DNA of 64,000 nucleotides from an uncultured Gammaproteobacteria bacterium (GTDB taxonomy: Bacteria > Cyanobacteriota > Vampirovibrionia > LMEP-6097): contig CAZKAT010000003.1 of NCBI GenBank assembly GCA_964551135.1, forward strand, positions 90,942-154,941, in the 5' to 3' direction. Made by a program: the position numbers and the translations under genes. Positions within the stretch are counted from its first letter, which is position 1. Each line of letters opens with the position of its first letter. Under the pieces are notes generated by a model. That model was not told the DNA's origin, did not search any database, and worked only from the letters and a program-made list of their open reading frames with translations. Below, piece by piece: positions 7,861 through 9,521 of this stretch.

Positions 7861-8274
7861 ATGACAACACCAACTCTAGCTCCTCTACAACTTTTTGGTA
7901 AATTACGAGCAGCGATAAGTAAATTACAAACACAAGTCACTGAAACTCCAGATCTTCCAAATTCAATAAAAACAGCTACAGCTGAAGTTACTAGCAGTCT
8001 CGAAACAGTAGGAAACGTTGTTACAGACGCATTTAGAGAAAGATCGGCATTGAAGACAGACTTGCATACAGCGCAAGAGGGAATAAAAACTGCCGTGAAA
8101 AGTTTAACTGAACTAGCCGCAGAACAACCTGACTCTGTATCTCAAATAATAGGTAACAATCCAACTGCGGATGGATATAATGCAGGAGTCCAGGCAGGAA
8201 AATCAATACTGCGAGAGCCCCTAATATTAATCTTGGACAAGCTCAAAAAACTAGTACCGATAGAAGCAAGTTAA
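7861..8274 (+). CDS. hypothetical protein
   Basis: 137-aa helical ORF. Its stop codon sits inside the left copy of the direct repeat flanking fic. Confidence 0.4.
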   Translation: MTTPTLAPLQLFGKLRAAISKLQTQVTETPDLPNSIKTATAEVTSSLETVGNVVTDAFRERSALKTDLHTAQEGIKTAVKSLTELAAEQPDSVSQIIGNNPTADGYNAGVQAGKSILREPLILILDKLKKLVPIEAS

Positions 8275-8300
8275 GCCCACTCATCAGTGGAATAAACACA
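8270..8300. repeat. left copy of ~30-bp imperfect direct repeat flanking the fic cassette
   Basis: AAGTTAAGCCCACTCATCAGTGGAATAAACA here versus AACTTAAGCCCACTCATCACGCGGGATAAATATA at 9489-9521. A 17-bp core is identical. Confidence 0.6.
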
Positions 8301-8420
8301 ACTTCAATTCTTGGATTTTCTCAAATTTAGCTAAAAATATGGCTAAAAAACAATAAATTGGATATTTACAGGTATAATTGGGTACATTTTGGGTATAATT
8401 AGTATCTATAAGGTTAAATT

Positions 8421-9488
8421 ATGGATTTTAAACTAAATTCTTTAAATCTAAGCCAACTTGGGCTCAATGATGAAATTCTAAACATTATTGCTGAATTAGA
8501 AGACTATAAAGGTAATTGGAGAGCCGTAAGTAGCCTAGCTCCCGATAGATTAATTGATTTACGTCGATCAGCAACTATAGAAAGTACTGGCTCTTCTACT
8601 CGTATTGAAGGTTCAAGACTTTCAGATCAAGAAGTAGAAGAAGTTTTTACAAGGTTAAAGCAGAAAACTTTTAAGTCAAGAGATGAGCAAGAAGTTGCTG
8701 GCTATGCATACTTGGCACAAGAAATTTTTGAAAATTACACTAATATGCCTCTTACTGAAAACCTAATTAAACAATTACACGGAATGCTATTGAAGTACTC
8801 TGATAAAGATGATAGACATCGTGGTGAGTATAAAAAATTCCCTAATCATGTGGAAGCTTATGATCATAGTGGTAAAAGCTTAGGTGTTGTTTTTGAGACA
8901 GTGACTCCGTTTGAGACTCCTTACAAAATGCAAGAGCTTATTTATTGGACACGCACTAATCTCGATGACAAAATAATGCATCCATTGTTAGTTCTAGCTG
9001 TATTTATAGTGGTGTTTCTAGCAATACATCCTTTTCAGGATGGCAATGGTAGATTGTCACGCTTGCTGACAACTTTATTATTATTAAAATCAAACTTTAC
9101 ATACGTACCTTATAGCTCACTAGAAAATATTATTGAAGCTAATAAAGATTCTTACTATTTAGCTTTAAGACGCACTCAGCAATCATTTACTAAAGATGAT
9201 CCTGATTATCAACCTTGGTTATTGTTTTTCTTCAGATCATTGAGGAAACAAAAACAAAAATTAGAAACTAAGGTCAACAAGGAGACTATACTGGGACTAC
9301 ATCTCAAACCAATTGAAGCTAAGATAGTTTCTTTATTAGAACAGCATGGCAAACTGAACATAAGTCAAATAGCAAAACAGTTGTCTCTAAACAATAATAG
9401 TATAAAAAAATATTTAGCTACAATGGTGAAGGCTCAGCAAATTAAACAACATGGTAAGGCTCGTGCCACTTGGTATACTTTATCGTAA
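8421..9488 (+). CDS. Fic family protein (class II, N-terminal inhibitory helix, C-terminal wHTH)
   Basis: Fic motif HPFQDGNGRLSRLL. Inhibitory (S/T)xxxE(G/N) motif STRIEG near the N-terminus. 355 aa. Confidence 0.9.
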   Translation: MDFKLNSLNLSQLGLNDEILNIIAELEDYKGNWRAVSSLAPDRLIDLRRSATIESTGSSTRIEGSRLSDQEVEEVFTRLKQKTFKSRDEQEVAGYAYLAQEIFENYTNMPLTENLIKQLHGMLLKYSDKDDRHRGEYKKFPNHVEAYDHSGKSLGVVFETVTPFETPYKMQELIYWTRTNLDDKIMHPLLVLAVFIVVFLAIHPFQDGNGRLSRLLTTLLLLKSNFTYVPYSSLENIIEANKDSYYLALRRTQQSFTKDDPDYQPWLLFFFRSLRKQKQKLETKVNKETILGLHLKPIEAKIVSLLEQHGKLNISQIAKQLSLNNNSIKKYLATMVKAQQIKQHGKARATWYTLS

Positions 9489-9521
9489 ACTTAAGCCCAC
9501 TCATCACGCGGGATAAATATA
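9489..9521. repeat. right copy of direct repeat flanking the fic cassette
   Basis: See the left copy at 8270-8300. It overlaps the stop codons of fic and the convergent rsfS. Confidence 0.6.

Follow-up and report, generated by a model that had tools for sequence, protein, structure and literature searches.

In the 64-kb stretch of contig CAZKAT010000003.1 analysed here (64 000 nucleotides; hereafter the window), a fic gene lies between two imperfect direct repeats, and both repeats are copies of one gene end: on the right stand the final codons of rsfS, the gene for the ribosomal silencing factor, and on the left a frameshifted pseudo-end of the same gene. These repeats are the scar of an insertion or recombination event, for which we favour, with moderate confidence, a displacement of the rsfS 3' end. 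A preliminary description of this DNA had explained the repeats as a target-site duplication or an att-type scar left by a mobile single-gene cassette. Its view that they record an insertion or recombination stands, but the target-site duplication and the mobile single-gene cassette do not. The features of the region are listed in Table 1.

The left copy (8271-8306) and the right copy (9491-9527) are identical at 31 of 37 positions in a gapped alignment with one 1-nucleotide (nt) gap, and a shared AA stands directly beyond both. The repeats described earlier are therefore real, and their similarity is longer than was stated (36-37 nt versus about 30 bp). An exact 16-nt core, TTAAGCCCACTCATCA, is found at 8271-8286 and 9491-9506. 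The search for further copies that had been proposed gave just these two matches in the window, with up to three mismatches allowed, so that the core is not a dispersed motif. When the last 45 nt of rsfS were used as the query in local alignment, the second copy scored 24, whereas 30 shuffled queries reached no more than 17 over 20 kb; the similarity thus exceeds chance. The window is part of a metagenome contig of 288 kb. Four contigs hold exactly this Fic with identical neighbours, and the arrangement is therefore no one-off assembly artefact.

Read on the minus strand, the right copy is GAA GCT ATA TTT ATC CCG CGT GAT GAG TGG GCT TAA, and the left copy is GAA GTT GTG TTT ATT CCA C-T GAT GAG TGG GCT TAA. 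We retrieved 98 RsfS homologues, with Melainabacteria and Caenarcaniphilales among the source names, and FIPRDEW is the C-terminal consensus across 40 aligned homologues. No minus-strand open reading frame (ORF) of at least 50 amino acids (aa) in the window contains the left copy. The repeat is accordingly not the anonymous att-type core of the preliminary description, being the end of rsfS and a broken spare copy of it. The terminal TTA of the pseudo-end overlaps the TAA stop (8272-8274) of the upstream ORF137 on the opposite strand (TTAA), and the left copy does begin, as had been noted, at that stop codon. The right copy had been said to cover the stops of both rsfS and fic. The rsfS stop (9491-9493, minus strand) is indeed inside it, but the stop of fic (9486-9488), which converges on rsfS with 2 nt between the stops, lies 2 nt outside the core.

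The loci of relatives were gathered by exact-protein look-ups and two collection scans, and the window proteins were then mapped onto them. They are referred to here by numbers with the prefix L, with the RsfS identity to the window in parentheses. In the distant relatives L097, L098 and L100 (64-66%), sdhC lies about 60 bp from rsfS, tail to tail, and this is the ancestral state; the earlier statement that fic splits sdhC from the rsfS-mreCB block thus applies to a pair that was once adjacent. Between rsfS and sdhC there are a YdcZ-type exporter in L010 (66%), MatE in L017 (56%), an MNT/HepT pair with other ORFs in L009 (69%), NhaP-Usp in L090 (77%), and two small membrane ORFs in L089 and L093 (76%). 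In L086 (83%), rsfS is followed by the same small ORFs, a pseudo-end remnant and ORF138, and the contig stops before sdhC. The interval includes fic in the window (100%), L002 (90%), L004 (86%), L087 (81%) and L092 (83%). Since its cargo differs among lineages, the sdhC/rsfS interval is a hot spot for gene gain. Even the slot between sdhC and fic has different contents in every genome (ORF137, ORF132, ORF380 and ORF104). In L002, L004, L087 and L092, fic occupies the same rsfS junction as in the window, and the fic-less relatives L086, L089 and L090 each hold other cargo there.

Second copies of the rsfS end were seen only at insertions, namely in the window and, around another cassette, in L004 and L086; genomes with no insertion beside rsfS show a single copy, that of the gene itself. 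In L004, rsfS is followed by about 210 bp with a 32-aa ORF, then by ...GCGAGATGAGTGGGCTTAG, and then by fic. Copies of the rsfS end lie at 6415-6429 and 6632-6659 on either side of this small-ORF cassette, the second being placed exactly where rsfS abuts fic in other genomes. L086 has this cassette too, with 80-aa and 32-aa ORFs, and after it ...GTATATATACGCATGGGCTTAA, of which the TTA is the stop of ORF138; its pseudo-end, ...ATGGGCTTAA, overlaps the stop of this ORF137 homologue. The remnants in L004 and L086 have the derived stretch GTATATATACG in common, and therefore probably stem from one event. The lengths of the pseudo-ends are 36 nt, about 28 nt and about 10 nt. L002 has fic, but no significant pseudo-end. 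A decayed one was considered in the gap that separates the stop of ORF132 from the fic control block, but the 45 AT-rich nt there show no significant similarity to the rsfS end and the likeness by eye is not trustworthy.

Several features of these junctions are recorded here in their own right. At L002 7610-7655, where the window has its pseudo-end, an AT-rich tandem repeat of AAATATGAAT (3-4 copies) takes up this gap between ORF132 and the control block of fic. The two-gene small-membrane-protein cassette (L086 1238-1568, L089 502-874, L004 6430-6640) has no family match and encodes proteins of 32 aa (MxDxKIVFLLIGxATF..YYWGTRDEE) and 80-94 aa. The stop of the larger ORF, which is mostly deleted in L004, overlaps the rsfS stop (TTAG/TTAA). 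In L092, the roughly 100 bp between the fic and rsfS stops (1658-1766) contain a perfect 11-bp inverted repeat, CGACTTCGCAC ... GTGCGAAGTCG, that is not in the window; this insert looks either MITE-like (miniature inverted-repeat transposable element) or like a terminator.

The two copies in the window differ in a manner that bears on their origin. At three codons the pseudo-end has GTG, ATT and CCA, as in the relatives, and the working end has ATA, ATC and CCG. The presence of different alleles in the two copies rules out duplication in place and indicates that lineages have recombined. Pseudo-end and working end share 84% identity, whereas neutral DNA (the coding DNA of ORF137 and ORF132, and the spacer beyond the fic control block) cannot be aligned between species, and the pseudo-end is therefore much younger than the species splits. 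In distance matrices, the window groups with L086, L004 and L002 for mreB, mreC and the 5' part of rsfS, and moves closer to L087 and L092 in fic and in the 3' 250 nt of rsfS. The best breakpoints by the maximum-chi-square method (p=4e-7 to 3e-4, uncorrected for scanning and with few taxa) fall at about 9580-9780. This is 90-290 nt upstream of the rsfS stop and beyond the 37-nt repeat, a position that agrees better with homologous crossing-over within rsfS than with an exchange limited to a short att core.

The fic gene itself is not a recent arrival to judge from these comparisons. Its DNA is 81-87% identical between the window and L002, L004, L087 and L092, and mreB, mreC and rsfS are 76-89% identical in those same genomes. 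The GC content of fic (0.31-0.35, compared with 0.33-0.46 in the flanks) does not set it apart. Since fic is as diverged as its housekeeping neighbours, lies at the same junction and is not compositionally distinct, it has long been resident in the clade and is not a freshly landed cassette, and it is on this ground that the cassette of the preliminary description is given up.

We therefore propose the following course of events. Before the event, rsfS would have converged with a downstream gene, the stops overlapping (TTAA) and leaving no intergenic room; the predicted uninserted ORF137/rsfS junction is …GAAGCAAGTTAAGCCCACTCATCACGCGGG…. An incoming segment from a related Caenarcaniphilales lineage would have carried a replacement 3' part of rsfS, fic and its control region of about 110 bp. 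One crossover would have been homologous, inside rsfS, and the other join illegitimate, about 37 nt before the resident rsfS stop, by homology-facilitated illegitimate recombination ('C-terminal displacement'). The outcome would be the order rsfS body with the incoming 3' end, fic, the old 3' end (the pseudo-end, with its 1-nt deletion) and ORF137, both flanking genes being intact. Displacement is recognised by an orphan 3' end distal to the cargo together with an intact gene carrying a different allele, and the window has both for rsfS. As rsfS and ORF137 overlapped at TTAA with no spacer, an insertion that duplicates the gene end keeps both genes intact, and this may be why the scar has persisted. 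For the piece that moved we infer the segment named above and, for the enzymology, general recombination rather than a dedicated integrase. Displacement of 3' ends, with homology-facilitated illegitimate recombination as the proposed route, has a precedent at Rhs, contact-dependent inhibition (CDI) and type VI secretion system (T6SS) effector-immunity arrays (PMC5361080).

Several points weigh against this proposal. Wherever its frequency has been measured, homology-facilitated illegitimate recombination is a rare event (PMC5361080). No donor lineage was recovered among the collected relatives. No precise empty site was recovered among the relatives' loci examined; the comparison of the interval in fic-less relatives, which the preliminary description had called for, thus tied second repeat copies to inserted DNA, but did not yield the exact empty site. 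The breakpoint p values are uncorrected, and the assignment of the recombinant among the compared genomes is uncertain. A targeted, site-specific process could equally be indicated by three pseudo-ends at the same gene (window, L004 and L086, of which the latter two probably share one event), and an exact 16-nt core with diverged arms looks like a classical att core. Moreover, the recombinase search covered only the 64-kb window, in which 19.5-41 kb was left unannotated.

A site-specific att scar is a serious rival explanation, although we regard it as unlikely. An element carrying fic would have been put into an attB at the 3' end of rsfS by a tyrosine or serine recombinase whose gene lies elsewhere or has been lost. 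The element would have supplied a look-alike gene end, as phages 21 and e14 do at icd and SCC (staphylococcal cassette chromosome) elements do at rlmH, and the 1.2-kb module would be either what is left of a longer element or a cassette that has no recombinase and was moved in trans. Besides the core and its diverged arms, direct repeats that contain the end of the target gene are in its favour, as is the duplication of the same rsfS end around a different cassette in L004 and L086. The Fic subfamily is also mobile: it was found on 65 plasmids, 33 of them conjugative, and the homologue in L091, from an unrelated assembly, lies in an integrase/ParA/TraG-type mobile-element context. The window even contains a tyrosine-recombinase-like ORF of 272 aa (51275-52093, minus strand), with a Phage_int_SAM_1 N-terminal domain and weak XerC/XerD/XerA-type matches. 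However, no catalytic integrase domain was detected in this ORF, which is 42 kb from fic. The earlier suggestion to look for an integrase that recognises the core brought none to light among the called genes within about 10 kb either side of fic, and none is listed among the interval cargo or in the shown regions of the related loci. No viral contig held a matching attP, the two hits being chance matches in unrelated GC-rich coding sequence. No inverted repeat or hairpin site above background was found at the repeats or at the module ends, the best inverted-repeat pair (21 nt, 76%) being located within the fic coding sequence. The unequal lengths of the pseudo-ends, the housekeeping-like divergence of fic always at this one site, and the inferred breakpoint upstream of the repeat also argue against an att scar. 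An integron gene cassette (attC) was considered and rejected, there being no palindromic fold in either strand of the repeats and no integrase nearby. The 272-aa ORF adjoins a secretin gene (52918-55152) and several ORFs without a family match; the look-up of another ORF, at 30543-31607, found no match.

It is quite unlikely, in our judgement, that the event ran in the opposite direction, with fic resident and a segment of sdhC, ORF137 and the last 36 nt of a donor rsfS arriving. Homology in sdhC would then have been the anchor, and the illegitimate join would lie just upstream of the control region of fic. This would agree with the variable slot between sdhC and fic, with the conservation of fic across the clade and with the resemblance of the pseudo-end to the clade consensus allele. 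Yet the shifted affinities belong to the 3' part of rsfS and to fic, not to the backbone, and an ORF137-like gene with the overlap of stop and pseudo-end is present in the fic-less L086, suggesting that the position of ORF137 beside rsfS is older. A slimmer chance falls to the idea that the last 20-40 nt of rsfS are a true attachment site in the Caenarcaniphilales clade, to which recombinase-less cassettes have been added successively by a recombinase encoded elsewhere. If so, an integron-like or SCC-like array would lie behind a ribosome-factor gene, with fic and the pair of 32-aa and 80-aa membrane proteins as its cassettes.

Two further explanations are rejected. A chance match or a dispersed functional motif of the terminator or REP (repetitive extragenic palindromic) kind, unrelated to insertion, is very improbable: a scan flagged a weak, terminator-like 5-bp hairpin inside the rsfS end, but the fold of both repeats on each strand does not differ significantly from shuffles (z -1.0 to +0.3), the sequence codes for protein in rsfS, where the 40 homologues conserve it as coding sequence, and neither the copy number, the alignment score nor the single copy in genomes without an insertion agrees with such a motif. 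A target-site duplication made by the transposase of a fic-carrying transposon has next to no probability; direct repeats do bracket one gene, but they are 36-37 nt long, which to our knowledge far exceeds any target-site duplication, they are 84% identical with allele-type differences, and neither terminal inverted repeats above background nor a transposase was found in or near the fic module.

Table 1. Features of the sdhC-rsfS interval and its surroundings in the window
Feature	Position	Strand	Remarks
sdhC-like succinate dehydrogenase/fumarate reductase membrane subunit	7112..7780	+	Pfam Sdh_cyt; far edge of the variable interval
ORF137, hypothetical	7861..8274	+	No Pfam/NCBIfam match; strong promoter-like site 7822-7849
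rsfS pseudo-3' end (left repeat)	8271..8306	-	E V V F I P [1-nt deletion] D E W A *
fic upstream block	8315..8420	+	Conserved in the window, L002, L004 and L092 (multi-genome alignment)
fic, 355 aa	8421..9488	+	Pfam Fic E=3e-16; C-terminal winged helix-turn-helix
Genuine rsfS 3' end (right repeat)	9491..9527	-	Last 11 codons and stop, ...H EAIFIPRDEWA*
rsfS, ribosomal silencing factor, 142 aa, intact	9491..9919	-	Pfam RsfS E=2e-29
mreC and mreB	9900..11824	-	Pfam and synteny; backbone conserved upstream of rsfS and used as reference when testing for recombination

The Fic protein of the window carries both motifs claimed for it earlier. The Fic core motif, HPFQDGNGRLSR, begins at residue 203 and fits HxFx(D/E)GNGRxxR. 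The inhibitory motif S59-T-R-I-E63-G64 (STRIEG), which fits (S/T)xxxE(G/N), is N-terminal to the core in the same polypeptide. The protein thus fits class II by the published class definitions. Residues 24-349, including both motifs, align to PDB 8UQU, in which ...SSNRLEG stands opposite STRIEG. This is the nearest solved structure, and SoFic-like class II proteins have, like the protein here, a Fic motif, an N-terminal inhibitory motif in the same chain and a C-terminal domain of DNA-binding type. However, the window Fic scores 57 bits against the NCBIfam SoFic equivalog, below its cut-off of 550. In L091 (6001-7572) a 523-aa Fic homologue has two overlapping stretches that match the window Fic with 51-57% identity, which suggests an internal partial duplication.

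The block upstream of fic holds two to three direct GGCTGAAA(T/A)-type repeats, a duplicated TGGGTATAAT and two TATAAT boxes. The GGCTGAAA-type and TGGGTATAAT repeats are candidate operators that may be bound by the winged helix of Fic itself, in autoregulation. Homology of the block between genomes ends at about 8315, and 8 nt (8307-8314, ATTCTTGG) lie between it and the pseudo-end. The distal boundary near -110 that four genomes share was considered as evidence of a cassette and dropped; because neutral DNA is unalignable between these species, this boundary is better read as the edge of a constrained control region.

The gene on the other side of the pseudo-end has weak homologues in the same slot, ORF132 of L002 and ORF138 of L086. 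The members of this family (window 7861-8274, L002 7655-8053, L086 1631-2047) share only 26-28% amino-acid identity, compared with 83-98% for the flanking genes, and the gene seems to be either evolving very fast or repeatedly replaced. Farther along the window, at 13916-15453, hipB-like helix-turn-helix and hipA (HipA_C) toxin genes lie between ABC-ATPase and SIS genes. The same is seen in L004 but not in L002, where the flanking genes are 9 nt apart. The hipBA insertion was examined as an internal replicate of the scar and set aside, as no gene-end duplication flanks it. An MNT/HepT-type pair (Polbeta nucleotidyltransferase and NTase_sub_bind) adjoins thrS at 3552-4236 (minus strand) of the window, and a similar pair lies at 6945-7645 of L009, there within the rsfS-sdhC interval, so that toxin-antitoxin-type genes recur around the region.

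This case illustrates how a Fic gene of a type carried by plasmids became fixed in a chromosome, here that of an uncultured relative of the cyanobacteria that does not photosynthesise. The gene took its place where two genes met tail to tail with no spacer, and both neighbours stayed intact thanks to the duplication of the gene end. Pseudo-ends of this sort are useful markers of recombination between Caenarcaniphilales lineages that are known only from metagenomes. The scar is neat but ordinary, and it implies no new mechanism unless a dedicated recombinase was involved.

Comparable arrangements exist at the ends of other conserved genes. The prophages 21 and e14 insert in the 3' end of icd in E. 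coli and supply a near-identical replacement end, so that the gene stays intact. As in the window, a pseudo-3' fragment remains on the far side as a direct repeat. However, these phages are 10-40 kb long and encode their own integrase, whereas the module here is 1.2 kb long, with one gene and no recombinase. In staphylococci, the last codons of rlmH (orfX) are the insertion site of SCCmec and of pseudo-SCC elements without a recombinase. There too the target is conserved and ribosome-related, the insert lies between short direct repeats that include the gene end, tandem arrays occur, and some of the elements lack a recombinase. The SCC repeats, in contrast, are about 15-18 bp long and are recognised by Ccr serine recombinases, whereas the repeat lengths at rsfS vary and neither a Ccr-like gene nor a conserved inverted repeat was found.

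The closest likeness to the proposed course of events is displacement at the Rhs, CDI and T6SS loci (PMC5361080). In both settings, homology to the conserved part of a gene brings in a new 3' end together with downstream cargo, the old 3' end is pushed outward as an orphan fragment, arrays arise by successive events (compare L004), and no integrase takes part. Unlike in those loci, the gene here is a housekeeping gene for a ribosome factor, it does not end in a variable toxin domain, and the old and new ends encode the same peptide; the cargo, fic, is convergent and independent rather than an immunity partner. No paper linking rsfS to an integration site was found in the literature. We therefore read the rsfS junction as a further case of a familiar type of scar, the displaced 3' end of a gene, at a gene where it was previously unreported and in an uncultured Melainabacteria lineage.

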